A DNA stretch of 32,000 nucleotides from Pyrodictium occultum (GTDB lineage Archaea; Thermoproteota; Thermoprotei_A; Sulfolobales; Pyrodictiaceae), in NCBI RefSeq assembly GCF_001462395.1, contig NZ_LNTB01000001.1, positions 1,410,001 through 1,442,000 of the forward strand. The letters are read 5' to 3'. The notes beneath the pieces are model-generated. The model was given only the letters and a program-made list of their open reading frames with translations. It did not search any database and had not been told where the DNA came from. Numbering within the stretch: position 1 is the stretch's first letter; each line of letters opens with the position of its first letter. Position numbers and translations under genes: made by a program. Positions 2,108 to 28,335 of this stretch are shown here, in pieces.

Positions 2108-2482
2108 GGGTCTCCACCTCTACTCTTCTACAGTATCCGTGGATTTCCTGCACATTCATTATGTTATTAGGAAGCGCTTCTACTTAAATGCTTCCCCGGA
2201 GGTTCTGGGGGATTCCCTCCCCGTGGCGCTGCAGAGCCTCCAGGGGAGGCCGGCGGGGCCGGTGGATCCACCGGTGCACCGACGCCCCGGGCTTCGCGGC
2301 CGGGGTGCCGGCGGCTGCTGTGGAGCGGTGCTACCCCTCACCGCAGCCGTCCACGGCCTAGGGCGGAAGCCGTGCGGTTTAACCTATTTAATCCGGGAGA
2401 GGCATTCTAAACACGTGACCATGGAGAAAGGGTACAGCCCTACCGCGCCCAGCGGGCGTCGAGGGAGGCCGGGTTCATCCTG

Positions 2483-5260: not shown

Positions 5261-5266
5261 GGGCGC

Positions 5267-5422
5267 CTAGTGCACGGCCTCCTGGCTACTGTTACGCGCA
5301 GCGTAGTGGGCGGGCAGCTTGGTGGCAAACATTGCTATCAAGCCGAGCACGGCGATGGAGGCGGCTAGCGTTAGCACAGCCGCCAGTATGGCCTTGTCGC
5401 CTCCCCTGTCGTAGAGGTACAT
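5267..5422 (-). CDS. 51-aa single-pass membrane peptide; probable N-terminal anchor of the 4778..5260 protein
   Basis: Hand translation gives MYLYDRGGDKAILAAVLTLAASIAVLGLIAMFATKLPAHYAARNSSQEAVH-TAG. ATG at 5420-5422. It is below the ORF-track length cutoff. Confidence 0.5.
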   Translation of the reverse strand: MYLYDRGGDKAILAAVLTLAASIAVLGLIAMFATKLPAHYAARNSSQEAVH

Positions 5423-5667
5423 AGCCGGTGGCGTGACCTCACGGCGTATCGGGATAACCTTGCTCAGCCCACACTCGCTCTAAACGAGTGCAACCTGGCC
5501 GGTATTGAACATAATCTAGCTTCAAAGGGGTGCAGCGCTGGTACACCCCTAGTAGTGCAATGCCGCGCCAGCGGCCCCTAAGGGCTACAGAACCCCGCGA
5601 ATAGGTGAATAAAAATAAACCGGTTCCCTAACCTGGTTCACGCAGGCGCTACAGTATAGGCGCCGTC

Positions 5668-5723
5668 ATGAGTATTACGTGTGCCCGGCCGGCCCCGTGG
5701 CCCCGGCCCCCGCTAGCTAGCCC
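5668..5723 (+). repeat. copy A of a duplicated intergenic unit
   Basis: ATGAGTATTACGTGTG...GCTAGCTAGCCC. The GCTAGCTAGCCC block starts 44 nt after the ATG, exactly as in copy B. Confidence 0.8.
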
Positions 5724-5830
5724 GTCCACGCCCCGCCCGGCGGGCTGTTCTCTCCGAATCTTTTAAGCACAGGGTTTAATGTTTGGGGCATGCTTGTATA
5801 TTAGCCTGGGCGTACCTGTTAGGATCCTCG

Positions 5831-5886
5831 ATGAGTGATACGTGTGGGCCCCCGGCGCCGTGGGGCGCCTGCATGCTAGCTAGCCC
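5831..5886 (+). repeat. copy B of a duplicated intergenic unit
   Basis: ATGAGTGATACGTGTG...GCTAGCTAGCCC. By hand alignment 40 of 56 nt are identical to copy A. The ends are conserved (14/16 and 12/12) and the centre varies. A TATA-like TGTATATTAG lies about 30 nt upstream. Confidence 0.8.
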
Positions 5887-6206
5887 CTGTGCGCCCGTCT
5901 CCGCGTCAAGGCTCCGGGGAACCTATACTGCCGCGTGCAGACATGTTTTGTTGTTTGCCCGTCTGTTAATAGGTTGGCTTGTGCCCTGGGTGTTACCCTC
6001 CGTGGGGTGTGCGCCGGGCCTTCGGGTGTGCGGGCAAGCCCGTATACCCTGGGGCCTGTGTAAGCCTCTCGCCTAACCTGTCAGCCGGTGGCTGGAGGGG
6101 CTGTGGGCGGCCGTGGGTGGGTGTACCGGTTGATGCACGCGTGCACTGCTCTGCCGGGAGCGTGGTGGGTGGCTAGGCGTATAGCTGGCCTCCCGGGGCT
6201 ATATGC

Positions 6207-6701
6207 GTGGTGGCCTCTGGGTTGCCCGGGCGTGTCGTCCTGCCGGATTCTATCCTACGTGCTCTGGAGAGGGAGGCTGAGAGGAGGGAGAGTACCCCAG
6301 AGGCTGTGATTGTAGGGATGCTCCTGCGGCTTGTGGAGCCGGGGGAGAGGCCTGGGGCTCTGCTGGATGCTGCCCGTACGAGCCTGGAGCATGCCAGGGA
6401 GCTGGCTGGGGAGGGTAGGCTTGGGGATGCTTTCCGCCGTGTCTGGGCCTCTGTGCTCATGGCGCTTGATGCTCTCTCGCTCCTCCGTGGGGGCGAGAGG
6501 CCTGGGGGGCTTGCGGAGTACTGGCGCCTTGTCTCGGAGGCTATGGGGGAGCTGGGCGCGGCTGCTGACGCCTGGTATGCGGGGCTGGCCGCGTATATAG
6601 CGTGGAAGGAGGGTATCGGCGATGAGAGGCACCTGGAGGCCATGGCTGGGAGGGCTGGGAGGCTGGTGGAGGAGCTGGAGGCGCGGCTGGGGAGGGGCTA
6701 G
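6207..6701 (+). CDS. RHH-like N-terminus fused to a PaREP1-family (HEPN-related) domain
   Basis: 164 aa. RVVLPDSILRALEREAERRESTPEAVIVGML looks like a ribbon-helix-helix. The rest (LEHARELAGEGRLGDAFRRVWASVLMALDALSL...AEYWRLV...AWYAGLAAYIAWKEG...VEELEARL) fits my recollection of the PaREP1 pattern. The true start may be the TTG at 6222. Confidence 0.55.
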   Translation: MVASGLPGRVVLPDSILRALEREAERRESTPEAVIVGMLLRLVEPGERPGALLDAARTSLEHARELAGEGRLGDAFRRVWASVLMALDALSLLRGGERPGGLAEYWRLVSEAMGELGAAADAWYAGLAAYIAWKEGIGDERHLEAMAGRAGRLVEELEARLGRG

Positions 6702-12731: not shown

Positions 12732-13445
12732 TTGCCCGTGGACCCCCGGAGCATAGTCGCCGCAGCCCTCAGGGAGGGCCGCTCCAAGCTCCTCGAGCAC
12801 GAGGCCCTAGCGCTCGTGGAGGCCTACGGGGTGCGGGTTCCGGGCTACCGGCTGGCCCGGAGCCCCCGCGAGGCCGCCGAGGCCGCCAGGGAGATCGGGT
12901 TCCCGGTGGCCCTGAAGATAGTGAGCCCCGACATAGTGCATAAGAGCGATGTGGGCGGCGTGGTGCTGGGCCTCGGCACGCCCGGGGAGGTGGAGAAGGC
13001 CTACAGCGAGGTAATCGAGAGGGTGAGGGAGAGGGCGCCGGGGGCCCGCGTGGTGGGCGTGCTGGTGCAGGCCATGGCTCCCCCGGGCGGCGTCGAGCTC
13101 GTGGTCGGGGCTGTCCGGGACCCCGTCTTCGGCCCCGCGGTCATGTTCGGGCTGGGCGGGATCTTCGTGGAGGTCTTCCGGGACGTGAGCTTCCGCGTGT
13201 CGCCCTTCACCCGGAGGGACGCGGAGGAGATGATCAGGGAGGTGAGGGCGTACCGCATCCTCCGGGGCGTGAGGGGGCTGCCGCCGAGGGATATAGGGGC
13301 GCTCGTCGACATAGTTATGGCTGTCCAGAGGCTCATGGAGGAGAACCCGGAGGTGCGGGGGCTCGACATAAACCCGGTGCTGAGCTACCCGGAGGGGGCC
13401 CTGGCTGTGGACGCGCGCGTGGTGCTCGGGGAGGGGGCTAGGTGA
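12732..13445 (+). CDS. ADP-forming acetyl-CoA synthetase beta-subunit-like ATP-grasp protein
   Basis: 237 aa. LLEHEALALVEAYGVRVP, GFPVALKIVSPDIVHKSDVGGV, VLVQ, GPAVMFGLGGIFVE and DINPV match the AcdB/ATP-grasp_5 layout. TTG start. No alpha subunit is in the window. Confidence 0.75.
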   Translation: MPVDPRSIVAAALREGRSKLLEHEALALVEAYGVRVPGYRLARSPREAAEAAREIGFPVALKIVSPDIVHKSDVGGVVLGLGTPGEVEKAYSEVIERVRERAPGARVVGVLVQAMAPPGGVELVVGAVRDPVFGPAVMFGLGGIFVEVFRDVSFRVSPFTRRDAEEMIREVRAYRILRGVRGLPPRDIGALVDIVMAVQRLMEENPEVRGLDINPVLSYPEGALAVDARVVLGEGAR

Positions 13446-14556
13446 CCAGCCTGGCTAGGGCCTCGACGCCGCCCCTCCGCAGGGCCTCGTGTATCTCCAG
13501 CGCTATTCTCTCCCCGAGGCTGAGGGGCCTGTCGAAGTAGAGGCTGCTGTACTGCCCGCCCCAGGCCATGACCGCGTTGGTGCCACCGCCTATCCTGGGG
13601 GCTATATCGTAGACCACCAGGCCCAGCTCAGGGGTCGCTATGGCCTGGAGGGTAAATGGGCCCAGGACGCCGGGGGGCTCGAGCCTCGCAGCCGCCTCGG
13701 CGAAGCGGAGGCCCAGCTCGAACACCCGGTGGAGCATGCTCTCCCTTATCGTCACGGGTATGTGGCCTATCTCTATCATCCTGGGCTCCACCGCGCCCTC
13801 AAGCCCCTCCTGGATCCAGGCCGGGAGCCTGTTTAGATCGTCTATGTTGGTCTGGAGCCTCCTGTCTATGCTGTGCAGCTCGAGCCTCCCGTAGACGAGG
13901 CTCTGGAAGAAGTTGAGGTTGAAGTGGGCGCCCGGCACATACTCCTCAACCGTCATGGCCTTGAGGCTCTCCTCGTCTATAACCCCCTTCTCCATGAGCT
14001 CCCTGAGCTTCTCGACCGCCGCCTTCCCGTCGCGGGCTATGAAGAAGGCTCTCTCCACCCTCCTCCTGGCCTCGGGGAGCTTCACTATTACGGGGCCGTC
14101 CGCGTCCTCGGGCCTCTCGTAGACCCTCGGCCTGGGGATGCCCGCCTCGTCTAGGAGGCGGTAGTAGTTCTTCCCCCCGACCCTCTCCTCCCAGCGGAGG
14201 AGGAACCGGTTCCCGAACACTGGCACGAGGAACTCGTTCTCTATCCCCTCGTAGCCCACGTAGACCGCGAAGCTCCTGTTGGGCACGAAGACGGTGTTGA
14301 GCCTCCTCATCTTCTCCTGCACTTCATCCCGGAGCATGTCCCGGTAGTCGTCCAGGACCAGCAGCTCGTCCACCACGGGGAGCATGCGGTACGCCAGGTC
14401 CCGGCCCCGCTTGGCCACGGCGAGGGTGCGGAACCCGAGCCTCCGGGCCCCGCGGAGCACGTCTAGGGCGGAGTGGCTGGCGAGTACGCCTATGGTTACC
14501 CGGGAGGGGTCGTAGCGGCGGAGTACCTCCTCCACCTCTCCACGCTCTATGGGCAA
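13438..14556 (-). CDS. purP: 5-formaminoimidazole-4-carboxamide ribotide (FAICAR) synthetase, ATP/formate dependent
   Basis: 372 aa. IGVLASHSALDVLRGARRLGF..., ATP-grasp core, and C-terminal ...GGGTN... are typical of archaeal PurP. TTG start. 8-nt convergent overlap with the previous gene. Confidence 0.8.
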   Translation of the reverse strand: MPIERGEVEEVLRRYDPSRVTIGVLASHSALDVLRGARRLGFRTLAVAKRGRDLAYRMLPVVDELLVLDDYRDMLRDEVQEKMRRLNTVFVPNRSFAVYVGYEGIENEFLVPVFGNRFLLRWEERVGGKNYYRLLDEAGIPRPRVYERPEDADGPVIVKLPEARRRVERAFFIARDGKAAVEKLRELMEKGVIDEESLKAMTVEEYVPGAHFNLNFFQSLVYGRLELHSIDRRLQTNIDDLNRLPAWIQEGLEGAVEPRMIEIGHIPVTIRESMLHRVFELGLRFAEAAARLEPPGVLGPFTLQAIATPELGLVVYDIAPRIGGGTNAVMAWGGQYSSLYFDRPLSLGERIALEIHEALRRGGVEALARLVT

Positions 14557-14624
14557 GCCCGGGGCACCGTATGGGCCGCTGAGGCCCCGGGCGCGGGATA
14601 AAACAGCCCCTTCCCCCGTGGGGG

Positions 14625-15212
14625 CTACTGGAGGGCTACGAGCACGAGGCCCTCGGCGAGACCTATCACCGCGCCGAGGGCTAGGCCGGCGAGCTCTATG
14701 AAGCGTAGCTCCCTGCCCGCTATCCTGCGGAAGAGGGCCTCCATCTCCCTCGAGTCGAGGGCTGATACCTGCTCGGCGACGAGCTCCCCAACCCTGACCC
14801 TGCCGGCCGCGGAGGAGGCTAGGGACTGGAGTATGGGCGAGACTATGCTCTCCGAGACAGCGTCAGCTATCTTGGCCACGTAGCCCTCGAGCGCCGCGTA
14901 TAGGATAGGGTTGGAGCGGAGCATGCCCCTGAGAGCGTTCTCTATGGCGCTCCTCGCCGCCTCCTCCATGCTGGACTGCAGGTCCCGCTGCAGCCTCGGG
15001 GTCTTCAGGTACTCCTCCGCGATCTCCCCGAGCCTCCTGGCGAACTCCTCCTTCTTAGCGGGGATCAGCCCCTGCACCCTCAGGCCGAGGAGGGGTATGC
15101 GGACGGGCCTGTAGGGGCGGAAGAGGAGCTGGACAGCCACCACGTTGGTAACGTAGCCGACGAGGGCACCCACGAGCGTGGACACGAGCAGCGTAGCCAA
15201 GGCCCCGGCCAC
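14625..15212 (-). CDS. DUF445-family membrane protein
   Basis: 195 aa. GYVTNVVAVQLLFRPYRP....GLIPAKKEEFARRLG is the DUF445 signature. It has a C-terminal TM helix. Confidence 0.7.
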   Translation of the reverse strand: MAGALATLLVSTLVGALVGYVTNVVAVQLLFRPYRPVRIPLLGLRVQGLIPAKKEEFARRLGEIAEEYLKTPRLQRDLQSSMEEAARSAIENALRGMLRSNPILYAALEGYVAKIADAVSESIVSPILQSLASSAAGRVRVGELVAEQVSALDSREMEALFRRIAGRELRFIELAGLALGAVIGLAEGLVLVALQ

Positions 15213-15280
15213 GGCCGCTAGGCACCTCTTTCCTGCAGGCCCCCGGGGGGCCGCCCCCCGGCCCCGGTATATAGGGCACC

Positions 15281-15943
15281 CTAGAGCCCCTGCTCCTCCA
15301 TGTAGCGGAGAAGCTCAACGGTCTTGCAGGCCACGTAGCAGTGGCCGAGCGCCGCCACCGCCACGAGCCCCGCCAGGGGGCTGCCGGCGAGCCCGGCGAG
15401 GAAGACTATAAAGAGCCTCACATCCCTCCCCGCTATGCCCGGTATCCTTCCCACCAGCACCGGGTGCCGGCCGGCCAGCTTCTCCCCCACGCCATGCAGG
15501 TAGGACACCATCAGGTCGCCCGTGACGGCGAGCAGCGCGGCCGCCCCCGCCGCCAGGCCCCCGTGGCTGGCGAGCACCGCGAGGGACATGCCCGCTAGGA
15601 GGGCTATGTCGGAGAGCCTGTCCAGCACCGTGTCTAGGAGCGCGCCTGCCCTGCTCTGCCTGCCAAGGGCCCTGGCCAGCTCCCCGTCCACCCCATCCAC
15701 TATGGAGCCCGCCTGCGCCAGGAGCCCGCCCAGCCAGGGAAGCCCGGCGGCGAACGCCAGGCCCCCGAGGGCCACGAGGACGGTGGCCAGCACAGTCACC
15801 GCGTCGGGGCTCGGGGGCCTCGGGAGGCGTAGGAGCATCAGGGTTATCCGGGTTGAGAGCCTCCTGTTTATCAGCCTCGAGACAAGCCCGTCGGTGGGCT
15901 TAGCCAGGCCCGCCGGCCTAGCAGCGGAGCCAGGAGAGGACAT
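15281..15943 (-). CDS. CDP-alcohol phosphatidyltransferase, probable di-myo-inositol-phosphate-phosphate synthase (DIPPS)
   Basis: 220 aa. DGVDGELARALGRQSRAGALLDTVLDRLSD is the D-G-x2-A-R-x8-G-x3-D-x3-D motif. Polytopic. It overlaps the upstream cytidylyltransferase gene by 26 nt. Confidence 0.75.
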   Translation of the reverse strand: MSSPGSAARPAGLAKPTDGLVSRLINRRLSTRITLMLLRLPRPPSPDAVTVLATVLVALGGLAFAAGLPWLGGLLAQAGSIVDGVDGELARALGRQSRAGALLDTVLDRLSDIALLAGMSLAVLASHGGLAAGAAALLAVTGDLMVSYLHGVGEKLAGRHPVLVGRIPGIAGRDVRLFIVFLAGLAGSPLAGLVAVAALGHCYVACKTVELLRYMEEQGL

Positions 15944-16754
15944 GGTCCACCACCCTCCTCCTCTCCCCCTTCTCCGCCTCCTCGAGGTCCCGGGGCGTGT
16001 CTATCTCCGTCCAGGGCTGCCCGGAGGCCTCCGCCACGTAGAGGAGGCCCCGGGCCGCCAGGCCGCTGGTGAGCGTGTTGAGGGAGAGGACCCCGCCCCC
16101 GGAGGCGAGGGCCCGGCGGGCTTCCTCGGCCAGGCCGGCGGGCCTCGCCGCGTGGACCCCGGTGTCCACGTGGCTCCAGTACCGCAGCCCCTTCCCCACC
16201 GCGTAGCCTATGCCGCCGGATGCCTGCAGCCGGGTCGCCTCCTCCACGTCCACGCAGCAGGGGTCGCCGTCGCCGGCGATGCCGTAGTGGGCCCAGCCGG
16301 GGAGGGGCTGGAGCCTGGCCGGGAGGAGGGGCGAGTAGACGTGGTCGCTCATCGATACGTAGACCGGCTCCCAGCCCAGGCCCGGGCAGCCCCGGCTAGC
16401 CAGTAGGAGGCTGTAGCCGTTCTCCCTCCACGGCTCCTCGTTCACAACCACGTCCACCGCCCCGGGGCCGTAGATGCTCTCCGCCAGCCCCCTAAGCTCG
16501 CCGGCCAGCTCCCTCCGGGTCACTATGCACGCCTCGGAGACGCCTAGCAGGTGGAGGACGCTGAGCGGGTACCAGGCGAGGGGCCGGCCGCGGAGCCTCA
16601 CCAGGGGCTTGGGGCCGCCGAGCCTCCTCCCTAGCCCCGCCGCGAGCAGCACCGCATACCGGGCAGCGGCCACGAGGCCGGCACCTCCGAGCTGTGGCGG
16701 CCAACGCACGGGCTGCAGGGCGTCGAGGGGGTCGCCATCGCTGGGCTTCAACAC
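15918..16754 (-). CDS. nucleotidyltransferase, probable CTP:inositol-1-phosphate cytidylyltransferase (IPCT)
   Basis: 278 aa. AVLLAAGLGRRLGGPKPL is the NTP-transferase G-rich loop. It is translationally coupled to the CDP-alcohol transferase. Start uncertain: GTG at 16754 or GTG near 16673. Confidence 0.65.
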   Translation of the reverse strand: MLKPSDGDPLDALQPVRWPPQLGGAGLVAAARYAVLLAAGLGRRLGGPKPLVRLRGRPLAWYPLSVLHLLGVSEACIVTRRELAGELRGLAESIYGPGAVDVVVNEEPWRENGYSLLLASRGCPGLGWEPVYVSMSDHVYSPLLPARLQPLPGWAHYGIAGDGDPCCVDVEEATRLQASGGIGYAVGKGLRYWSHVDTGVHAARPAGLAEEARRALASGGGVLSLNTLTSGLAARGLLYVAEASGQPWTEIDTPRDLEEAEKGERRRVVDHVLSWLRC

Positions 16755-16884: not shown

Positions 16885-18789
16885 CTACCCGGCCTTCGGC
16901 TTGGCCTCGGGCTTCTCCTTCTTCTCTATCTTCACGGTCTCGCCGCGCTCTATGCGGAGCCTGGCTGTCCTCGCGAGCTCTCTCACAATGTCGGTTTTCG
17001 TCACCACGCCGACTACGCGGCCCTCCTCGTCCACAACCGGCACGCCGTCCACGTTGTGCTCGCGCATCAGCTCTATAGACTTGACCGTGTCGTCGCTCGT
17101 CCTCACGTATACGTCGCGGAGCGGCACCGTGGCGTCTATCACCAGGAGCGGGGTCACCTTGACGTAGCGGCCCTTCTTGGCGGCGCCGCGGACGAGCTTC
17201 CTGACCCATACCAGCCTGCGGCTCCGGATCCCGGTGACGGCGTCCTCGTAGGCTACGAAGGGCAGCCGGTTGGCGGAGACCACTCCTATTATCCTGGAGC
17301 CGTCGTAGACCGTGAGGGCGTCAAGGTAGAAGGTCTGCATCTTCTTGACCGCGTGGTGGAGGCTGTGGTGCGGGTGCACTATCCCTATTCTGCCCGGTGT
17401 CATCACGTTCTCTACCCTGGCGCGGCCGGCCTGGAGCCGCGCGTAGGCGTCCACGAGATCGTCCTTGGTTATGAAGCCGACGGGGCGGCCGTCATCACCG
17501 ACCACTATCGCTACCTCGGCCTTCGACTCAACCATGCGGAGCGCTACCTGCTCGATGCTGTCATCCGGCCTGACCCTTGGTATGTCGGTGTCCATGACGT
17601 AGTCTATGAAGTAGCGGTCATGCACCCTCCTCTTCCAGATGGGGTCCTTGAGGCCTATGGCACGTAGCATGCTCCACTTGCTAACCACGCCTACTATCTC
17701 GCCCTTCTCATCCACCACCAGCAGGTAGTTGGTCCGGTAGCGGAGCATCATCCTCCGGGCGTGCTCCACGGTATCGTTCACCGTCACCGCCGGCAGCTCT
17801 GGCCTAGCCACGTCGGCGGCGCTGAGCCCCACCAGAGCCTCAGCCTGCGGCTTGGCTACAAGCACCTGCTGCAGCACCGTCTCGGTACTGGCGTAGGTTA
17901 CGCGCTCCTCAGGCCTAACCTCTATCGGCAGCGCAGCCCTCCTAGCCGGCTTCACGCGGCCGGGCTTCGCGCCCTCCAGGTAGGCCCTCGCCACATCGAA
18001 TATCGTCAGCACGCCCACCAGCCTGCCCGTCTCCTCGTCTACGACAGGCAGCACGGGGAAGTCGTTCTCCACCATTATCTTGGCGGCGTACTGGACCGGG
18101 GTCTCGGGGGTGGCGGCCGGCGCGCCGCGCAGCATTATACTGCGTACCTTGGCTATGCTCTTCAACCCCCTCTCGGACTCGCGGTGGAAGAACCAGCGGC
18201 CGGTCTCGGCGAACTCTCTGAGCGATACTATGCCTACAGGTATGGGCTCCTCCCTGCTCCTAACAACAATCTTGCCGAGCTTGCCGTGGTAGACCAGGTC
18301 GCTCCAGACCTTGTTAACTCCCTCATGCTGGGTGGTAATGTACTCCTCCAGCCCCTCGGTGGTCATAACCTCCGCGACGGTTTCAGCGGCGGGCTCGAAG
18401 CCGGCGGCCATCAGCGCCTTCACTATGTCCGCGACGCTCACCACGCCCACAACAACTGGGTTGTCCCTGGACTCTACCACGGGTACAGCGTATACCCGCT
18501 CCTCCTCCATCCTCTTGACAGCATCCCTCACGTCCTCGTCGCGGTAGGCGACAGGCCAGTCGAGCGCGATGTCCTTGGCGCGGAGGCTGGAGTAGTGGCT
18601 GGTTATCTGTATAACCTCCCTCCAGGTGACGTAGCCCTGCAGCTTCATAGTCTTCTCGCTGTCCACGAGCACCGCTATAGGCTCCTCGTTCTCCCGGAGC
18701 AGGGCCCTAACCACCGTGGCAGGGGTGTCGGGGGGCACCACCACCCGCGGCTTCCTAGCAGCCTCCCACACCTTCATTACGAAGCCCAC
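16885..18789 (-). CDS. protein made of eight CBS motifs (four Bateman modules)
   Basis: 634 aa. Eight repeats of the ...P.V.....V..A...M.......PVVD..G..VGVV...D... type were counted by eye. Lys/Glu-rich tail. A TATA-like CTTTAATC lies about 30 nt upstream, so the mRNA may be leaderless. Confidence 0.85.
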   Translation of the reverse strand: MGFVMKVWEAARKPRVVVPPDTPATVVRALLRENEEPIAVLVDSEKTMKLQGYVTWREVIQITSHYSSLRAKDIALDWPVAYRDEDVRDAVKRMEEERVYAVPVVESRDNPVVVGVVSVADIVKALMAAGFEPAAETVAEVMTTEGLEEYITTQHEGVNKVWSDLVYHGKLGKIVVRSREEPIPVGIVSLREFAETGRWFFHRESERGLKSIAKVRSIMLRGAPAATPETPVQYAAKIMVENDFPVLPVVDEETGRLVGVLTIFDVARAYLEGAKPGRVKPARRAALPIEVRPEERVTYASTETVLQQVLVAKPQAEALVGLSAADVARPELPAVTVNDTVEHARRMMLRYRTNYLLVVDEKGEIVGVVSKWSMLRAIGLKDPIWKRRVHDRYFIDYVMDTDIPRVRPDDSIEQVALRMVESKAEVAIVVGDDGRPVGFITKDDLVDAYARLQAGRARVENVMTPGRIGIVHPHHSLHHAVKKMQTFYLDALTVYDGSRIIGVVSANRLPFVAYEDAVTGIRSRRLVWVRKLVRGAAKKGRYVKVTPLLVIDATVPLRDVYVRTSDDTVKSIELMREHNVDGVPVVDEEGRVVGVVTKTDIVRELARTARLRIERGETVKIEKKEKPEAKPKAG

Positions 18790-19038
18790 CCAGGGATAGA
18801 AGAGGGGGGTGCATGAGGATTAAAGACTCATGGTTAGATGAGGGCCTAACAGAAGAAGAGCAGGCCGGGGGGCCGTGAGGGGCACCGTTCTCTCCAATGG
18901 AGTGCTTCTCAAACCCCTCCCAGGGCCGCCTGGCAACGGGTGTCGCTGCGGAGACCCCCTAGGGGTTGCGCCCGGCGGAACGCTGTGGAGCTGAGCGGGG
19001 GGCGGGGGACCCGGTGCCTCATGAAGGATCTGGTGGGG

Positions 19039-19116
19039 TGGTGCCGCGGCCGGGATTTGAACCCGGGTCACGGGCTTGAAAGGCCCGCATACTTGGCCGG
19101 GCTATACTACCGCGGC
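19039..19116 (-). tRNA. tRNA-Glu (anticodon UUC), CCA encoded
   Basis: The reverse complement folds as GCCGCGG / D arm / CGGGC-CUUUCAA-GCCCG / CCGGG-UUCAAAU-CCCGG / CCGCGGC-A-CCA. 78 nt, no intron. Confidence 0.9.
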
Positions 19117-19213
19117 ACGCCGCGCAGCCCCTTTGCCTGGGGGAGGCCGCGGCCCTTGACGGGCGGGTGCCCCCTGCAGGGTTTAATTAGGTTTAGTCAT
19201 GCTGGCTGACGGG

Positions 19214-20620
19214 CTACCCGGGGCTGATGAGCCAGGCCTCCCTGGTTCCGTCCGCCCGGATGAAGACGAGCGTGCCTCCCAGGTACTCCAGCCTGTCTCC
19301 AGGCCCCCAGGGCGCTGCCGGGAGCAGCGTGTCTACATGGCTCAGCCTCCCCGTGCCGGCGTCGATCTTGTAGAGGCCGCTGTGCTGGAGGAGGAGCCAG
19401 AGCGTGGTACCGTTGCACGCCATTCCCACCGCGTAGCGGCCCGGGGCCTTCGCCAAGAGGCTCCAGCTCGAGGAGGTGGCGTTGTACAGCGCTATGTAGG
19501 GCTCCCCAGTGGTCTCATTATAGGCTAGGATGTAGACTGTGTCGCCGCTAGCCGCCGAGACGGTGTAGTTCCCGGCCACGAGCCTGCCACCATTAACAAT
19601 CATCTCACCCGCGGATACGTGGCCGGCCCCGATTGTTTTACCCTGGCCCGTGAGATCTATGATGCAGTAGCTGCTCCCGCCCCCCTGGGCGACGAAGAGG
19701 TAGGGGCGCCCCTGGGCCTCCAGGGCCTCGATGCGGGTCCCCGGCCCCAGGGCTCTGCACGCGCTGGTTGCTAGCTTCCAGGTGTCCGCCTGGCTTAGGC
19801 TGCGGGCGTAGATGCCGCTGGCGTTGACCAGGTATAGCAGGCTCTTCGCGGGGCTATACACTATGTCGGCGCTACAGTTGAACACCGTGCCCGCGTCGAT
19901 GCTGTAGAGGTAGGCCAGCCCGGCGCCGGTAACGTTGTAGACCTCTATGTCTCTCGAGCCGCCTCTTGCGACGAGCAGGATCGTCGACGCAGCCCCGTTC
20001 ACCGTGGCGCTGCCCAGCCACGTGACCGTGCAGTCCAGCATTGTGGACTCGAGGAGGGCCAGGGAATACCGGGTGGGCTGGCTAGCGGCGCCCCCAGCCG
20101 CGGCGGCCCTCGGGGCCGCCGGCACAGGGGCTACCAGGGGGCTGCCACTCACAACGGGGATCACCGCCACCGGGGTGCGGCCACTAGCGTACCCTACCAG
20201 CGTGATGTTTACCCGGTACCCCGGCCCCAGGGCTACGGGGAGCCTGTCAGCCACGTAGGTGCTCCCGTCAGGGCTTTCAGCGACTATCCTTACCCCGCTC
20301 GAGTTCAACCTGTCGAGCATGGTTATGCTCGAGTCGTTCCAGAGCACCGTGACGCCGGTGACGAGCAGGGCGTCGGCGTAGCGGGAGGCTATCTCAATGG
20401 TTAGGTTGGAGCCGTCTAGGCTCCAGAAGATGTCGAGCGCCTTGGCTACAATCGGGGACTTGGACTTCTCTTTCACGAGGCGGGAGGCGAGCTGGCCATA
20501 GCTGTCGAGGAAGCGGAGGAGGAGGATACCCACACCCAGTATTGAGAGCAGTATCAGCGCCAGGATTACGCCCCCCACCAGCGTGCCTACCGCGCGTGAG
20601 CCCCCGCGCATCGCCCACAC
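19214..20620 (-). CDS. secreted or anchored glycoprotein with a prepilin/FlaFG-like N-terminal helix, a small beta module and a beta-propeller-like domain; paralog of the 937-aa protein
   Basis: 468 aa. N-terminus MWAMRGGSRAVGTLVGGVILALILLSILG. Residues ~50-165 and the C-terminus (GDRLEYLGGTLVFIRADGT) align with the neighbour. More than 10 N-x-S/T sequons. Repeated strand motifs suggest a propeller. Confidence 0.75.
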   Translation of the reverse strand: MWAMRGGSRAVGTLVGGVILALILLSILGVGILLLRFLDSYGQLASRLVKEKSKSPIVAKALDIFWSLDGSNLTIEIASRYADALLVTGVTVLWNDSSITMLDRLNSSGVRIVAESPDGSTYVADRLPVALGPGYRVNITLVGYASGRTPVAVIPVVSGSPLVAPVPAAPRAAAAGGAASQPTRYSLALLESTMLDCTVTWLGSATVNGAASTILLVARGGSRDIEVYNVTGAGLAYLYSIDAGTVFNCSADIVYSPAKSLLYLVNASGIYARSLSQADTWKLATSACRALGPGTRIEALEAQGRPYLFVAQGGGSSYCIIDLTGQGKTIGAGHVSAGEMIVNGGRLVAGNYTVSAASGDTVYILAYNETTGEPYIALYNATSSSWSLLAKAPGRYAVGMACNGTTLWLLLQHSGLYKIDAGTGRLSHVDTLLPAAPWGPGDRLEYLGGTLVFIRADGTREAWLISPG

Positions 20621-20631
20621 CCAGGCGGCGC

Positions 20632-23445
20632 CTAGCCGAGTTGGAGTACGAGTAGGCTGCTCGTGCCATCCTCTCTGACGTGGTAGAGCTTGCCGTCCAT
20701 GTATACCAGCCGGTCGCCCGGGCTCATGGGGTAGTAGGGCGCTGTCACCGGGTAGGCGCTCCAGGAGCCAGCCGCGAGGTCGTAGTATTCCAGCTCGCCG
20801 CCCCGGAGCATCGCCCAGAGCCTCCCACGGTCCGGGTCGTAGTCCATGCCCACCGGGTAGAGGGCTGGCACCGGGCCGAGGTCCCGCACCCTGCCGTCGG
20901 AGAGGCTCAGCGCTAGGAGCCGGCCGGCCTCGCCGGTGTGTATGTAGAGGATCGAGCCGGCCTGCGCTGTTGAAGTATAGTTGCCCGGCGCCAGGGGCAG
21001 CTGTATGGTGGAGACCAGCGTGCCGTTCTCTATGCTGTAGACGTACACCCTGTCCAGGCCCCCGCCGGGGTACACGTATAGGTGGGTGCCGTTGGAGGCT
21101 GCGAAGCCTCCCTCAGCTATGCTGCTGCCGAGCGTTATAGTCTTGTTGGCCAGCCACTGCCGCCTAAAGAGGTCGTAGGGTACTGCACGGCTGCCACGCA
21201 GCACCCAGAGCCATGTGGACGCCCCCCTAACCACCGGGTCCATGGCTAGCAGCGTCGCCCCGGTGCCTGGGAGCCCCGCGGCCGTTAGGTCCACCTGCTC
21301 CGCTGCACCGCTCGCGGGATCGTATATCAGCAGACTGCTTGACTGCTCGCTGGCTATCGCTATCCTGCTGCCCGTTATAGTCACCGTGCTTGCGTTGATA
21401 CTCACCAGGTCGAGCTGCAGCTGGAAGCCCGTGAACCGGCTGACCACTATCCTGACACTGAAGGAGCCCTCAACGGGTATCCTGAGGCCGGAGAGGCTTA
21501 TGCTGAGGGGGCCGCTCGCATTGCCTGCCTCGACGCTGTAGACGGGAACGCCGCCGCTTATGATGGATACCTGGTAGCTGTAGGGGCTGCCTGGGTCATT
21601 AGCGTATACCTCGATGCCGGTTATCGAGATCCTGCCGCTGGTATTGTAGCTTATCTCCACGCCCGCCCTGTGAATGGTGAAGAGGCGCTCCGGCCCCACC
21701 TCGGCCTCCAGCTCTCTCACCGGCTTCTTCCGGGGCCAGAACATCAGCGAGGGGGCGTTGTTGAGGCTGCTGGCCCTCGCGTTGTTGTAGCTGGATATAG
21801 TGTAGTGCCTCCTATCTCCGAGCGAGATGCCTATGGTCGGCCTGTCGCCGCTATACCCGTTTATTGAGCCGTAGTCGAACCTTATGAGCCCGTTCTCGTA
21901 GAGCACGACGTCGAAGTCAGCTACACCGTGGTGCCAGTAGAAGTCGGTGTGCCAGCGTATGACTACCCCGGAGCCGTATTGGTCGCTGTAGCCGCTCAGT
22001 ATGTATATGTCGTGCGCGTCGCCGGAAGTCATTAGGTCCTCCCAGAAGGGTGCTATCATTAGCCTCCTCTCTAGCTCGTACGTGCTGTCACTCCAGTCTG
22101 TGATACGGCTCTGGGATATGAACCCGTTGCTGCACACGTAGACGCTGCTGAGCCTTCTATCGTAGAAGGGGAAGCTGAAGGGAAGCGTATACCTCCATGC
22201 ACCATCATCGGCGTGCCAGCCCATGGGGGTGCCGCCGGGTATGACTCCCCTGCGCGGCATTACCCACTCCTGGTACTGGATGGTGTAGCCGGGCCCGTCG
22301 CCCGCTGGGAGGGGCGTCATTACCTTCTCTAGGCCGTAGTAGTCCGGGTCCGGCTGGGTGGCTGAGGGGTTGCCATAGACTAAGAGGATCTTTACCCGTC
22401 CATTCGCCTGGATGCTGGGTATCTTCACCCATATGACTGCCCTGCCTGCTGTGGTGTTCCACTCCTCCACCCAGTAGGGCAGGGGCCGACAATCCTCCGT
22501 GAGCACGCGGATATCGCTTCCATCGCTCCTAGCCTTGTTGAAGTCGAAGTTCGTGGTGTCGAGCTCTATCCTCACCTGTATATCCGTGTAGCTGTAGGGG
22601 TTGGGGTTGGTTACCGTGACCTCGCGGTAGTAGCGCCACCCGGTGTAGGCTGGGCAGAGCACTGTCCCGCTGGACTGTATGTTCAGCGTGTCGCCATCCC
22701 TGGCGGAGAGGCTGGATAGGCTGCCCGACACGTGGGTTCCGTAGACTATGCTGTAGCCGCTAGGCTCCAGGACCCGGCTTGGGCTGAGCACTGCCTGGTA
22801 TATCCTGGTCGCGGTGGTGTAGCCCGAGAGCACCTGGGGGAGGAGCTGTAGGGACACGGCGGGGGACGTGTAGTTACCGCTCGGGGGAGGAGCCGGGGTC
22901 ACGTTGCCCGAGGGGGGTACGTACCTCCTCACCGGGATGACCACCACTGCCGGGCTCGCCGAGAAGCTGGCTACTATGGAGACGGGCTCTACCCCCGCCG
23001 GCGCGCGTAGTGTTATGTTGAGCCTATAGCCCGGGCCCAGCGCCACCGGCAGCCCCGCCACATTGTGGACTGCGCCGCTGGGCTCCTTGACGGTGATCGC
23101 CACGGAGCTTAGGGTGCCGTTGCCCTGATCCATTAGAGTGGTGCTGCCATCGCTCCAGAGCACCGTGACCCCGGTCAGCAGCACCGTCTTGGGGTAGCTT
23201 GTCTCGAGGTGCACGGTCAAAGTACCGCCCTGGAGGAGCCACCAGCCCTGGATGCTCTGGGCTATCGCCAGCGAGGCTGCACGCTCGCTAAGCATGGCTG
23301 AGATTAGTGAGCCGTACTTCTCGAAGGTCGATATAATTACGAGCGAGAAGCCTAGCGCTATGAACACCAGCACCGCTATGAGGACCATGCCGACTATACT
23401 GCCTACGGACCTATACCCTCTGCGCATGAGCATATACCTCTCCAC
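20632..23445 (-). CDS. giant surface glycoprotein: prepilin/FlaFG-like N-terminus, DUF2341-like module, NIDO-like module, Ig-like module and beta-propeller-like module
   Basis: 937 aa. N-terminus MLMRRGYRSVGSIVGMVLIAVLVFIALG. YYREVTVTNPNPYSYTDIQVRIELDT..DGSDIRV....LPYWVEEW......IWVKIP......LLVYGNP resembles DUF2341. LPFSFPFY..VYVCSNGFIS...IAPFWEDL...VLYENGLIRFDY resembles NIDO. Many sequons. Start is ATG 23445, 23433 or 23427. Confidence 0.8.
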   Translation of the reverse strand: MERYMLMRRGYRSVGSIVGMVLIAVLVFIALGFSLVIISTFEKYGSLISAMLSERAASLAIAQSIQGWWLLQGGTLTVHLETSYPKTVLLTGVTVLWSDGSTTLMDQGNGTLSSVAITVKEPSGAVHNVAGLPVALGPGYRLNITLRAPAGVEPVSIVASFSASPAVVVIPVRRYVPPSGNVTPAPPPSGNYTSPAVSLQLLPQVLSGYTTATRIYQAVLSPSRVLEPSGYSIVYGTHVSGSLSSLSARDGDTLNIQSSGTVLCPAYTGWRYYREVTVTNPNPYSYTDIQVRIELDTTNFDFNKARSDGSDIRVLTEDCRPLPYWVEEWNTTAGRAVIWVKIPSIQANGRVKILLVYGNPSATQPDPDYYGLEKVMTPLPAGDGPGYTIQYQEWVMPRRGVIPGGTPMGWHADDGAWRYTLPFSFPFYDRRLSSVYVCSNGFISQSRITDWSDSTYELERRLMIAPFWEDLMTSGDAHDIYILSGYSDQYGSGVVIRWHTDFYWHHGVADFDVVLYENGLIRFDYGSINGYSGDRPTIGISLGDRRHYTISSYNNARASSLNNAPSLMFWPRKKPVRELEAEVGPERLFTIHRAGVEISYNTSGRISITGIEVYANDPGSPYSYQVSIISGGVPVYSVEAGNASGPLSISLSGLRIPVEGSFSVRIVVSRFTGFQLQLDLVSINASTVTITGSRIAIASEQSSSLLIYDPASGAAEQVDLTAAGLPGTGATLLAMDPVVRGASTWLWVLRGSRAVPYDLFRRQWLANKTITLGSSIAEGGFAASNGTHLYVYPGGGLDRVYVYSIENGTLVSTIQLPLAPGNYTSTAQAGSILYIHTGEAGRLLALSLSDGRVRDLGPVPALYPVGMDYDPDRGRLWAMLRGGELEYYDLAAGSWSAYPVTAPYYPMSPGDRLVYMDGKLYHVREDGTSSLLVLQLG

Positions 23446-23857
23446 CTTGATAGACCACCTTCACGTCAGCCGACTCGGCACCGGACCCGAGGCTGCAGGT
23501 TATCCTGGCGAGAGAGTAGGGGGGTACGGTGAAGCCCTCAACCGGCCCCTGGTCTCCATTGGTCAGGTAGACTGTACAGTTCGCAGAAGTCGAGTTGACG
23601 TAGAGCCTCTGCAGCTTCACCGGGTAGTCGCCCGAGGCTACTACAACCTGGAGGTTTCCGCTAGAATCGATGTACGCCATGGCTATATCAAGCGCCTGGT
23701 GGAGCCTGTTCTCAGCCCTGAGAGCGCTCTGCGATATCTCGTTCATCCTCTCGTTAACAGTGCTGAGCACTTTTGCCAGCAGGAAGCCGCCCACCGATAT
23801 CACTATGAGCGCTAGCAGCGTCGCCGACAGAAGCTCGCTCACACCGCGATAGCGCAT
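23411..23857 (-). CDS. small pilin/FlaF-FlaG-like protein with a class III signal-peptide-like N-terminus
   Basis: 148 aa. MRYRG|VSELLSATLLALIVISVGGFLL is followed by a beta-rich domain (NLQVVVASGDYPVKLQRLYVNSTSANCTVYLTNG). It is the first gene of the operon and overlaps the next gene. Confidence 0.7.
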   Translation of the reverse strand: MRYRGVSELLSATLLALIVISVGGFLLAKVLSTVNERMNEISQSALRAENRLHQALDIAMAYIDSSGNLQVVVASGDYPVKLQRLYVNSTSANCTVYLTNGDQGPVEGFTVPPYSLARITCSLGSGAESADVKVVYQGGEVYAHAQRV

Positions 23858-23898: not shown

Positions 23899-23906
23899 TA
23901 ATATAT
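23899..23906 (-). promoter_or_regulatory. TATA-like box for the pilin-like operon
   Basis: The minus strand reads gcagcATATATTAgggc about 45 nt upstream of the ATG at 23857. A TGATG-aacaa-CATCA inverted repeat lies between the box and the start codon. Confidence 0.4.
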
Positions 23907-24048: not shown

Positions 24049-24127
24049 TGGTGCGGCGGCCGGGATTTGAACCCGGGATCGCCGGCTTGGCAGGCCGGCG
24101 TCCTAGTCCAGGCTAGACGACCGCCGC
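24049..24127 (-). tRNA. tRNA-Gly (anticodon GCC), CCA encoded
   Basis: The reverse complement folds as GCGGCGG / GUCU..GGAC / CCGGC-CUGCCAA-GCCGG / CCGGG-UUCAAAU-CCCGG / CCGCCGC-A-CCA. 79 nt. Confidence 0.9.
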
Positions 24128-25421: not shown

Positions 25422-25499
25422 GGGCCCGTCGTCTAGCCTGGTTAGGACGCCGCCCTCACACGGCGGAGGTCCGGGGTTCAAATCCCCGCGGGCCCACCA
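25422..25499 (+). tRNA. tRNA-Val (anticodon CAC), CCA encoded
   Basis: GGGCCCG / GUCU..GGAC / CCGCC-CUCACAC-GGCGG / CGGGG-UUCAAAU-CCCCG / CGGGCCC-A-CCA. 78 nt. Confidence 0.9.

Positions 25500-25827: not shown

Positions 25828-28335
<2,508 letters not shown>

Follow-up and report, generated by a model that had tools for sequence, protein, structure and literature searches.

A small pilin and two pilin-headed glycoproteins: a probable detached module of a type IV pilus-like system in Pyrodictium occultum

The window analyzed here, a stretch of 32,000 nucleotides from the archaeon Pyrodictium occultum, contains a cluster of three genes between tRNA-Gly and tRNA-Glu (Table 1). As an initial annotation of this DNA had described, the genes are co-directional and tightly packed; the ORF calls place all three on the minus strand. 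Depending on the start that is chosen for gene 2, it shares 23-35 nt with gene 1: the gene callers and the NCBI record begin at the ATG at 23433 (933 aa), and a GTG at 23445 would give 937 aa. The spacing between genes 2 and 3 is 11 nt, or 20 nt if the 465-aa start of gene 3 is used. The 933-aa product of gene 2 is CF15_07490 of P. occultum (100% identity). Current annotations list the three as “hypothetical” or “DUF2341 domain-containing,” and gene 1 as deposited begins at a position that cuts off its leader. The TATA-like box that had been reported before the first gene is present as ATATATTA, an all-A/T octamer in DNA of about 60-66% G+C, and 41 nt separate its end from the ATG of gene 1. 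We also scanned for sigma-70 promoters and intrinsic terminators, but this type of scan is unsuited to archaea, and the counts were at chance level.

Table 1. Genes, protein modules, and a candidate promoter in the cluster. Positions are those of the window; residues of gene 2 are numbered from the ATG.
Feature	Position	Strand	Description
TATA-like box ATATATTA	23899-23906	minus	Read from the sequence; candidate archaeal promoter for the cluster
Gene 1	23411-23857	minus	ORF with ATG start, 148 aa
Gene 1 basic leader	23843-23857	minus	MRYRG, residues 1-5; predicted to be cleaved off by a prepilin peptidase
Gene 2	20632-23433 (20632-23445 from GTG)	minus	933-aa modular pilin-like glycoprotein; 937 aa with GTG
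Gene 2 pilin-like module	22933-23433	minus	Residues 1-167; leader MLMRRGYRS; helix 7-60 and beta-sandwich 61-167 (AlphaFold2)
Gene 2 linker	22858-22932	minus	Residues 168-192; Pro/Asn/Thr-rich, flexible; pLDDT <50 at 173-190
Gene 2 DUF2341 domain	22348-22653	minus	Residues ~261-362; Pfam PF10102, E 4e-18, 66 bits (cut-off 23.4)
Gene 2 NIDO-like all-beta domain	21718-22287	minus	Residues ~383-572; Pfam NIDO, E 6.4e-5
Gene 2 beta-sandwich spacer	21343-21717	minus	Residues ~573-697; strand pattern of the model; poorly conserved (identity 0.44)
Gene 2 C-terminal beta-propeller	20635-21342	minus	Residues ~698-933; Foldseek
Gene 3	19214-20620	minus	GTG start, 468 aa; 465 aa in gene callers

The tRNA flanks raised the idea that the cluster is a genomic island. 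We rejected it: the corresponding modules of P. abyssi and P. delaneyi adjoin the same CBS-domain gene and neighbors, and the G+C of the cluster is unremarkable. No pilus assembly genes turned up among the surrounding ORFs that were examined. Pfam scans of 20 flanking ORFs returned housekeeping or metabolic families only, which bears out the initial statement that the window lacks the ATPase, the platform protein, and the peptidase; the scans left out a few ORFs at about 5260-6700, and five further ORFs in 12732-16754 were instead matched, by size and order, to P. abyssi genes downstream of its module, none of which is pilus-related. There is also no arl operon in the window, as judged from the same 20 ORFs by Pfam and the five by P. 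abyssi synteny, and most of the related loci are without one as well.

Each of the three proteins begins with a short basic leader and a [KR]-[G/S/A] site, followed by a hydrophobic stretch of about 20 residues. The N-terminal sequences and helices read as they had been quoted, and the top Kyte-Doolittle windows of 19 residues reach 2.5-3.15. With a slash for the bond, the predicted cleavage sites are MRYRG/VSELL in gene 1 (G5/V6), GYRS/VGSIV in gene 2 (S9/V10), and GSRA/VGTLV in gene 3 (A10/V11). These sites are conserved in orthologs, and 120 of 161 family representatives have the pattern [KR][GASC]/[VIL]S[EP] with a hydrophobic 20-mer (median cleavage position 7). They are in keeping with published archaeal processing sites (KA/IS, RA/LS, RA/VS, and DS/AV). 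None of the three N-termini fits the core FlaFind pattern that we applied, as each has G or E at a position that is aliphatic in this pattern. Judged by sequence, all three proteins have class III-type N-termini, and their cleavage is predicted. A prepilin peptidase appears to be available in the genus, since flagellins and 26 proteins positive in FlaFind are known from P. delaneyi. The two large proteins do share a motif at this end, as had been claimed, but its spacer varies between one and two residues and had been slightly misstated (RG-Y-R-S-VGSIVG in gene 2 and RG-GS-R-A-VGTLVG in gene 3).

The large proteins had also been credited with more than 10 N-glycosylation sequons each. We counted 12 in the 937-aa protein (4.4 +/- 1.9 expected from 1000 shuffles) and 11 in the 468-aa protein (2.1 +/- 1.3 expected), which is above chance and amounts to a 3-5-fold enrichment. 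This enrichment suggests an extracellular location for both.

The small protein can be assigned most directly. The profile of its family matches the type IV pilus subunit of Pyrobaculum calidifontis (8FK7) over the full length, with an E value of 4.1e-11. The AlphaFold2 model (mean pLDDT of 88) has a helix at residues 2-53 and then eight strands that form a beta-sandwich. The initial annotation had proposed a structural comparison, and this returned an archaeal pilin fold: the best Foldseek matches are the Saccharolobus pili 6w8x, 6nav, and 8tib, which align over 138-141 columns of the 148 residues with a TM score of about 0.4-0.53. The protein has an invariant Ser7-Glu8, a conserved YVN-x-T sequon (N88), and two cysteines. 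Pfam gave only noise for this family, and NCBIfam was informative: below threshold, UpsB matched 12 of 18 members, BasA 11 of 18, and arch_flag_Nterm 6 of 18, and family representatives have weak matches to the UpsB (E down to 7e-11) and UpsA models. By homology, then, the 148-aa protein is a type IV pilin related to the filament-forming 8FK7 pilin, and the “short pilin-like subunit” of the initial annotation is borne out by both sequence and fold.

The likeness to 8FK7 (2023, PMC10334743) extends to details. The two pilins are of similar size (144 aa for 8FK7 and 148 aa here), and the YVN-x-T sequon of the family aligns one column from Asn85, which is glycosylated in 8FK7. The 8FK7 pilin has an intramolecular disulfide, and the second of its two cysteines lines up with the second cysteine of the 148-aa protein. 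A KaiC-family ATPase is encoded in the 8FK7 locus, as it is in one related locus that is linked to pilus machinery (L012, below). On the other hand, 8FK7 comes from another order, the Thermoproteales; the available text (PMC10334743) mentions no DUF2341 partner gene for its locus; and 8FK7 builds a filament, whereas the Pyrodictium protein is a candidate shaft subunit. The Aap-type and Ups pilins of Saccharolobus and Sulfolobus, which provide the best fold matches, have the same style of processing site (RA/LS, KA/IS). The window protein differs from Ups in that it scores 22 bits against the UpsB model, far below the equivalog cut-off of 70, and no upsE/F or aapE/F genes are nearby. Pilin-fused giant proteins are not described at the Aap and Ups loci.

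The initial annotation had described the N-terminal layout as that of class III (type IV prepilin-like) signal peptides and of FlaF/FlaG-type proteins. On the second view, the three would be uncleaved monotopic ArlF/ArlG-type or S-layer-associated proteins, with the helix as an anchor and ectodomains that organize the S-layer or matrix. FlaG (5tuh) does occur in the Foldseek list for the small protein (rank 14, E of 2e-3), and some family representatives match ArlF or ArlG weakly (E of 1e-3 to 7e-6). However, these distant representatives score 17-26 bits against an equivalog cut-off of 110, the window proteins have no ArlF or ArlG match at all, and no arl operon was found among the window ORFs that were examined. 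The pilin matches are much stronger (8FK7 and UpsB, above), and members throughout the family keep the [KR][GAS]/ site directly ahead of the hydrophobic segment. The pilin half of the earlier statement therefore holds up, and the FlaF/FlaG half is weaker; we consider an anchor of this type quite improbable.

Gene 2 encodes a multidomain protein with one hydrophobic segment, at the N terminus (AlphaFold2 model with a mean pLDDT of 82). In this model, as in that of the 148-aa protein, the helix is followed by the beta-rich module that had been noticed in the sequence. Aligned by hhalign with the family of small pilins (profile A3), the N-terminal module (profile A4) gives a probability of 93.7% and an E value of 1.9e-7 over 137 columns; direct matches of this module to archaellins are weak (E of 0.02-0.1). 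On this evidence, the small pilin and the first ~170 residues of each large protein are homologs, which fits the earlier description of two large pilin-headed surface or adhesin proteins: hhalign relates the N-terminal modules of both to the small-pilin family. The linker that follows in gene 2 carries two sequons (N181 and N191 in the 937-aa numbering).

The middle of the gene 2 protein is a cassette of a DUF2341 domain and a NIDO-like domain. DUF2341 lies within the most conserved region of the protein, with a mean column identity of 0.69 versus 0.45 for the N-terminal helix. The NIDO-like match falls just below the cut-off (23.5 versus 25 bits); a precomputed PF06119 assignment exists for three homologs (P0005, P0009, and P0010), and the domain is strongly conserved (mean column identity of 0.68). 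Its conservation exceeds that of the pilin module, which is unusual for the head of an adhesin.

For the C-terminal propeller, the Foldseek matches include YncE (3vgz), Pizza6 (TMt up to 0.72), and WD40 propellers. These beta-propellers dominate the list for the full 933-aa model, and the search is uninformative for the DUF2341, NIDO-like, and beta-sandwich domains. A sequence search of the PDB with the profile of the large protein (A2) found YncE (E of 1.3e-3) and otherwise one non-significant archaellin match, and Pfam has a weak match to DUF6923 in the propeller region.

Gene 3 resembles gene 2 at both ends. In BLASTP, the two proteins are 40% identical over 160 N-terminal residues (3e-29) and 35% identical over 117 C-terminal residues (3e-10). 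In the gene 3 protein, a pilin-like module (with the predicted RA/VG site) leads into an Ala/Pro-rich linker and then into a C-terminal region that resembles a propeller. Neither Pfam nor BLASTP against gene 2 found the DUF2341/NIDO cassette in it. Among the related loci that we examined, gene 3 occurs in P. occultum and P. abyssi only. Sequence comparison thus identifies gene 3 as a Pyrodictium-specific paralog of gene 2 without the middle cassette.

The distribution of gene 3 corrects another point. The initial annotation implied a conserved operon of three genes, but synteny shows that the conserved unit is a pair: the small pilin gene is immediately upstream of the large gene wherever upstream sequence exists (about 15-17 loci). 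The middle cassette is swapped in P. delaneyi and deleted in gene 3. The pair is found on contigs that are labeled as Nezhaarchaeales, Thermoproteota, and various Desulfurococcales, and in Pyrofollis.

Pyrodictium is known for its cannulae, and this host, together with the restriction of gene 3 to two of its species, would suit a Pyrodictium-specific component of the cannula network or of an AbpX-type matrix. The wider distribution of the pair argues against this, as neither the Nezhaarchaeales, nor the other lineages with the pair, nor Pyrofollis are known to make cannulae. Cannulae and AbpX have been described as TasA-like donor-strand polymers, whereas no match to a TasA-like or cannula protein came out of our searches by fold and by sequence, which led to pilins, propellers, and YncE. 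There is no mention of DUF2341 or of propeller proteins in the paper on cannulae. We disfavor this explanation and give it very little chance of being correct.

At most related loci, the pair has no adjacent ATPase, platform protein, or peptidase. Among the related loci, type IV pilus machinery is adjacent at just two, both from metagenome-assembled genomes of Desulfurococcales. L012 has a series of four ORFs (for a KaiC-like ATPase, a 131-aa product, the pilin, and a 954-aa DUF2341 protein), and facing this series in convergent orientation are two T2SSF (TadC-like) genes and a T2SSE (FlaI-like) gene. In L014, a T2SSE ATPase and two membrane proteins follow the large gene on the same strand. 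(A scan of all loci for the Walker-A motif found a T2SSE-type ATPase in L012 only; L014, L057, and a partial gene from P. delaneyi were added by a phmmer search after that scan.) Archaeal pilin genes are commonly encoded apart from their ATPase, and most loci of this family are detached, so the lack of local machinery deserves less weight than the initial annotation gave it. Because no ATPase, platform protein, or peptidase is encoded in the window or beside most of the related pairs, we assume assembly in trans.

It had also been stated that the cluster cannot be mapped onto known loci. In fact, its layout resembles that of subclade 4A of the Desulfurococcales, which consists of a pilin, a DUF2341 surface protein of ~880 aa, and a secreted protein of ~370 aa (Makarova et al. 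2016, PMC4858521). In Desulfurococcus, the subclade 4A loci comprise FlaI, TadC, two pilins, the DUF2341 surface protein, and a secreted protein of 367 aa (PMC4858521). Common to both arrangements are a pilin of the FlaG/FlaF/PilA family, an overlapping gene for a DUF2341 protein of ~880-950 aa with one transmembrane segment, and a secreted protein of ~370-470 aa. They differ in that the window module is detached from ATPase and platform genes, the upstream pilin has 148 aa rather than the ~255 aa of arCOG08836, and the third gene is a paralog of gene 2, with any relation to arCOG08837 conjectural. Gene 2 has the features of the COG5306/DUF2341 class, with PF10102 in a large one-TM protein and a pilin gene overlapping upstream. 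Its orthology to arCOG03508/03511 is putative and based on the common domain and layout; for DUF2341 proteins of this type, FlaFind is positive for part of the arCOGs, and certain instances stand alone (PMC4858521). Overall, the module belongs with surface proteins associated with pili, a class already predicted in archaea, and does not represent a new kind of system. A further link between this domain and pili comes from the epd pilus locus of Methanococcus maripaludis, where a DUF2341 gene was recurrent in a screen for transformation defects.

We conclude that the locus probably encodes structural parts of an archaeal type IV pilus-like system, as a module detached from the machinery. The three proteins would be inserted in the membrane, and a PibD/FlaK-type prepilin peptidase encoded elsewhere would remove their leaders after G5, S9, and A10. 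A FlaI/TadC machine, also encoded elsewhere, would then draw the hydrophobic helices at the N termini out of the membrane and pack them into the core of a filament. The 148-aa protein would form the shaft or a shaft-proximal part. The two giant glycoproteins would be modular pilins, whose pilin module enters the helix bundle and whose ectodomain (DUF2341, NIDO-like, beta-sandwich, and beta-propeller) is extended outward on a flexible linker. They may sit at the tip as adhesin or ligand-binding heads and possibly serve as primers of assembly. Two features make a tip position seem most likely: these proteins are bulky, and the Glu that is invariant in the small pilin is missing from them. We found no expression or proteomic evidence for the proteins of the module, and the supplements of the P. 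delaneyi proteomics do not include Pyrde_0743 or Pyrde_0744.

The tip location and the adhesin function are proposed by analogy to bacteria, in which tip complexes and modular pilins include minor pilins with PilY1, CofB, TcpB, and PilB/PilC of Streptococcus sanguinis. In bacterial modular pilins, the pilin module enters the filament core and the bulky binding module only fits at the tip; the same logic may apply here. Like PilY1, the gene 2 protein has a C-terminal beta-propeller, and the analogy is one of function. PilY1 itself is not a pilin, and unlike in PilY1 systems, pilin module and propeller are joined here in one polypeptide. Makarova et al. also likened DUF2341 proteins to PilY1 (PMC4858521). 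A bolder and more tentative reading, which we would not bet on, is that the pair or triad is the archaeal counterpart of the bacterial pilus tip/priming complex, in which a pilin and a PilY1-like propeller or lectin adhesin are fused in one polypeptide; the small pilin and the modular giant pilin together would be a portable cassette for any FlaI/TadC machine of the cell. If so, the duplicated head of Pyrodictium, which lacks DUF2341/NIDO, would be a second, alternative tip, and with such tips, cells could attach to minerals, to the cannula network, or to one another.

A different use for the same parts is suggested by the bindosome of Sulfolobus (BasABC with class III sugar-binding proteins), which likewise combines small pilin-like proteins with large class III surface proteins that are encoded apart from the ATPase. 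The small pilin would then be a short pseudopilus or membrane-proximal scaffold, and the large proteins would bind ligands such as glycans at the surface or in the wide periplasm of Pyrodictium instead of riding on a long filament. The strong conservation of the DUF2341/NIDO cassette would be expected for a ligand that is itself conserved more than for an adhesin under fast evolution, most loci are without adjacent pilus machinery, and 11 of the 18 small-family members have the weak matches to BasA. Yet the window protein scores 12.9 bits against the BasA model, for which the cut-off is 230, and the best sequence match of the small family is a true filament subunit, 8FK7. The window has no bas operon, no solute-binding Pfam family was found in the large proteins, and the related loci show no consistent linkage of the pair with an ABC transporter. 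We view a bindosome-like display as unlikely, and we prefer the pilus module.

To our knowledge, experiments have yet to characterize a tip or adhesin subunit in any archaeal type IV pilus. Such a role for DUF2341 proteins has only been predicted, and this locus, which is compact and well defined, would allow a test in a hyperthermophile that can be cultivated. In practice, the annotation of these genes is improved; our overall view of archaeal pili stays as it was. The surface filaments of P. abyssi, which carries the same module, are already being studied by cryo-EM, and work of this kind could be guided by the pilin module in large DUF2341 proteins, by the conservation of the pair across Thermoproteota lineages, and by a middle cassette that can be swapped or deleted.

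The three genes, all on the minus strand, follow one another head to tail, co-directional and tightly packed, and have the sizes that the initial annotation had given. Genes 1 and 2 overlap by 23–35 nt, and genes 2 and 3 are spaced by 11–20 nt, a range that includes the 11-nt gap reported earlier. The middle gene's 933-aa product matches CF15_07490 of Pyrodictium occultum at 100% identity. All three proteins have class III-type N-termini (a few basic residues and a small residue, then a hydrophobic stretch of ~20 residues), as had been quoted correctly, and the TATA-like box placed before gene 1 is an octamer of A and T only. The motif said to be common to the two large proteins is present in both, but its spacer is 1–2 residues long and not exactly one. 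Each large protein does have more than 10 N-x-S/T sequons: 12 in the gene 2 product (versus 4.4 ± 1.9 in shuffled sequences) and 11 in the gene 3 product (versus 2.1 ± 1.3).

Features of the three-gene cluster and of the gene 2 product (window positions, or residues of the 933-aa protein)
Feature	Position	Strand	Details
Gene 1	23411-23857	minus	ORF, 148 aa
Gene 2	20632-23445	minus	937 aa; 933 aa from the ATG at 23433, the gene callers' start
Gene 3	19214-20620	minus	468 aa; 465 aa as called
A/T-only octamer ATATATTA	23899-23906	minus	TATA-like; ends 41 nt upstream of the gene 1 ATG
tRNA-Gly(GCC)	24049-24127		directly flanks the cluster
tRNA-Glu(TTC)	19039-19116		directly flanks the cluster, opposite side from tRNA-Gly
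tRNA-Val(CAC)	25422-25499		1.3 kb beyond tRNA-Gly, further upstream of the cluster
Gene 2 long helix	residues 7-60		model
Gene 2 beta-sandwich	residues 61-167		model
Gene 2 Pro/Asn/Thr-rich linker	residues 173-190		two sequons; low model confidence
Gene 2 all-beta domain	residues ~193-260		model
Gene 2 DUF2341	residues ~261-362		Pfam, E = 4e-18
Gene 2 NIDO-like domain	residues ~383-572		23.5 bits, slightly below the cut-off of 25
Gene 2 second beta-sandwich	residues ~573-697		model
Gene 2 beta-propeller	residues ~698-933		matches YncE, Pizza6, and WD40 proteins

The deposited start of gene 1 is probably mis-called. The NCBI protein (CF15_07495) has 143 aa and opens with MSELL; judging from the difference in length, this opening, and 99% identity across 97% of the query, it apparently begins five codons past the ATG at 23857. 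A protein begun there lacks the basic leader MRYRG (23843–23857, minus strand), which is conserved in all orthologues. On the plus strand, long ORFs of up to 351 aa (17761–18816, 23252–23815, and 19199–19528) run antisense to the CBS-domain and pilin genes; these are probably the stop-poor frames that are expected in G+C-rich DNA.

Both its fold and its homology identify the small protein as a type IV pilin. Its AlphaFold2 model (pLDDT of 88) has an N-terminal helix of 52 residues and then an eight-strand sandwich, and its top Foldseek matches in the PDB are the pili of S. solfataricus (6w8x) and S. islandicus (6nav) and the tri-pilus 8tib, with alignments that cover 138–141 columns of the 148-residue query. 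FlaG (5tuh) does appear among the matches, at rank 14, below the pili; that the proteins are uncleaved anchors, either ArlF/G-like or S-layer-associated, seems improbable to us. The family profile also matches 8FK7, a type IV pilus subunit from Pyrobaculum calidifontis (E = 4e-11), for which glycosylation at Asn85 and a single disulfide bond are reported (PMC10334743). In the alignment, the small-pilin family's near-invariant YVN-x-T sequon falls within one residue of Asn85, and as we read it, the second Cys of the 148-aa protein is opposite the second Cys of 8FK7. Family members consistently had sub-threshold matches to the NCBIfam models UpsB (12 of 18), BasA (11 of 18), arch_flag_Nterm (6 of 18), and UpsA (4 of 18). 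In an exhaustive profile search, 491 representatives reached E ≤ 1e-3, and nearly all of the 150 matches listed were 100–175 aa long. Eight of 10 sampled representatives had weak matches to pilin models, and one was above the arch_flag_Nterm cut-off. A [KR][GASC]↓[VIL]S[EP] site (the arrow marks predicted cleavage) at about residue 7, before a hydrophobic 20-mer, was present in 120 of 161 small-family proteins and is of the same style as published class III processing sites (KA↓IS, RA↓LS, RA↓VS, and DS↓AV). The Ser-Glu right after this site is invariant in the small pilin.

The large proteins open with a module that is homologous to the small pilin: when the first ~175 residues of eight large proteins were compared with the small-pilin family, profile against profile, the probability was 93.7% (E = 1.9e-7, 137 columns). 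The model of the 933-aa protein (pLDDT of 82, built from 10 sequences), like that of the 148-aa protein, bears out the helix and beta module that had been read from the sequence; the remainder is a predicted extracellular, glycosylated, multi-domain ectodomain. Gene 3 is paralogous to gene 2 and lacks the DUF2341/NIDO cassette; the two products are 40% identical in the first 160 residues and 35% identical in a C-terminal stretch of 117 residues. The predicted cleavage site, [KR]-[SAGC]↓[VI]-[GAS]-[STG], is kept in orthologues of the large proteins, but unlike the small pilin, they have no acidic residue just past it. Bacterial tip pilins lack Glu5, so by analogy, this absence would fit a terminal position in the filament.

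The conserved unit is the pair, with the small pilin gene directly upstream of the large gene and usually overlapping it. We counted about 17 distinct loci with the pair, in P. abyssi, P. delaneyi, Pyrofollis japonicus, several MAGs of Desulfurococcales, one of Nezhaarchaeales, and further contigs of Thermoproteota, and the small gene accompanied the large gene at every locus with upstream sequence. Synteny of all three genes, which the initial annotation had put forward as a check, is narrower, as the third gene was found only in P. occultum and P. abyssi. In P. delaneyi, which lacks the third gene, the syntenic large protein (930 aa; L008:10428-13220) has retained the pilin module (34% identity across 270 residues) and is weakly similar in its C-terminal part (21% identity across about 230 residues), but the middle ~450 residues are unrelated, without DUF2341 or NIDO. 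The middle is therefore an exchangeable cassette, and P. delaneyi shows a swap of domain cassettes inside one genus. In large proteins that have the DUF2341/NIDO cassette, no other part is as well conserved (mean column identity of 0.68–0.69, versus 0.45 for the N-terminal helix). The cassette is ~50% identical to ~970–1000-aa proteins from Archaeoglobaceae and unclassified archaeal contigs (L015:8396-11302, L016:8315-11314, and L024–L039), which open with class III-like N-termini (...KG↓VS or ...RG↓VT), and the NIDO-like part is 35–45% identical to proteins from Planctomycetota and Verrucomicrobiota MAGs. These similarities point to a binding cassette that may be under strong constraint or may move horizontally.

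In one MAG lineage, the pair is near a PF18894 (PhageMetallopep) gene, which abuts the large gene at three loci (L006:12683-13102, L007:6919-7338, and L010:14013-14375) and is about 2.4 kb off at the fourth (L090:15593-16039). A polyprenyl synthase gene is also near the pair at these loci, as are geranylgeranyl-reductase-like genes at most of them.

As the initial annotation had noted, there is no assembly machinery nearby: Pfam scans of 20 flanking ORFs found no T2SSE, T2SSF, or A24 peptidase, only metabolic and housekeeping families. At most loci of the pair, the window included, there is no ATPase nearby. Orthologous pairs are, however, linked to FlaI/TadC genes at two Desulfurococcales MAG loci. 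At one (L012), a KaiC-family ATPase gene (2303-3682), a 131-aa ORF, the gene for a 152-aa pilin, and a 954-aa DUF2341 gene are convergent with two T2SSF (TadC-like) genes and a T2SSE (FlaI-like) gene, followed by a weak pilin-family ORF. At the other (L014), a T2SSE ATPase gene (E = 3.5e-68 to the ATPase of L012) and the genes for two membrane proteins of 246 and 279 aa come after the large gene, on its strand. A Geoglobus DUF2341 protein (N-terminus KA↓VSPVIG) also adjoins a T2SSE ATPase. The flagellar-like pilus locus of P. calidifontis is also reported to contain a KaiC-family ATPase (PMC10334743); together with the KaiC-family gene two genes upstream of the pilin in L012, this suggests that the pair belongs with that type of pilus. 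About 9.5 kb upstream of the pair in P. delaneyi (L008:1-3655) are a partial T2SSE-family ATPase gene, with a 110-aa ORF of weak small-pilin-family similarity beside it (E = 0.003), and an integrase-like gene; these genes may belong to a pilus locus or to an integrated element. In P. abyssi, no such T2SSE-family gene was found within 10 kb upstream of the pair.

The window locus belongs to a predicted and catalogued class, not to an unknown system. Makarova et al. 2016 (PMC4858521) proposed that two large DUF2341 proteins, which they found in Methanococcus Epd pilus loci, are PilY1-like tip adhesins. They also mark several COG5306 arCOGs as FlaFind-positive, record stand-alone copies for Archaeoglobus sulfaticallidus and Korarchaeum, and assign subclade 4A ATPases to Hyperthermus and Pyrolobus, both of the Pyrodictiaceae. 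Furthermore, the DUF2341 gene of the M. maripaludis epd locus had repeated transposon insertions in a screen for transformation defects. The statement that the locus maps onto nothing known was thus too strong, although it is indeed not an Aap, Ups, Bas, archaellum, thread, or cannula locus. The earlier observation is confirmed, and its interpretation is largely correct. A cannula-specific role is extremely improbable, and bindosome-like display at the surface, with no long filament, is unlikely. Our analysis adds that the giant DUF2341 proteins are themselves pilin-headed, that the two-gene cassette is the conserved unit, that a cassette was swapped or lost within Pyrodictium, and that two relatives have direct FlaI/TadC linkage.

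The module very probably belongs to a type IV pilus-like system. Since the genus has flagellins and 26 FlaFind-positive proteins (in P. delaneyi), we infer that the leaders are cut by a prepilin peptidase encoded elsewhere. A FlaI/TadC machine would then assemble the proteins in trans, with the 148-aa pilin as a shaft or shaft-proximal subunit. The giant proteins would be modular tip pilins that present their DUF2341/NIDO and propeller heads for binding. We consider this overall mechanism fairly likely; for the tip position of the large proteins itself, our confidence is evenly divided. We know of no archaeal pilus tip protein that has been characterised, and filaments of P. abyssi are under study by cryo-EM.

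Downstream of the module, a CBS-domain gene and the genes beyond it are in the same order in P. abyssi and P. delaneyi. These shared neighbours imply that the module is ancestral in the genus, and they rule out a genomic-island origin for the cluster. Five further ORFs (12732–16754) were assigned to non-pilus genes downstream of the module in P. abyssi by size and order. Upstream, P. occultum has genes for an alpha/beta hydrolase and a 2-oxoacid:ferredoxin oxidoreductase type of enzyme, whereas P. abyssi and P. delaneyi have the NrdD side, which implies a rearrangement breakpoint on the tRNA-Gly side. The oxidoreductase genes (25828–27362) are unusual: POR (gamma-like) and POR_N are joined in one 307-aa ORF, and another ORF, of 206 aa and with a 10-nt overlap with the first, has the Transketolase_C/PFOR_II part. 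The arrangement may be a true split or fusion, or it may result from a frameshift.
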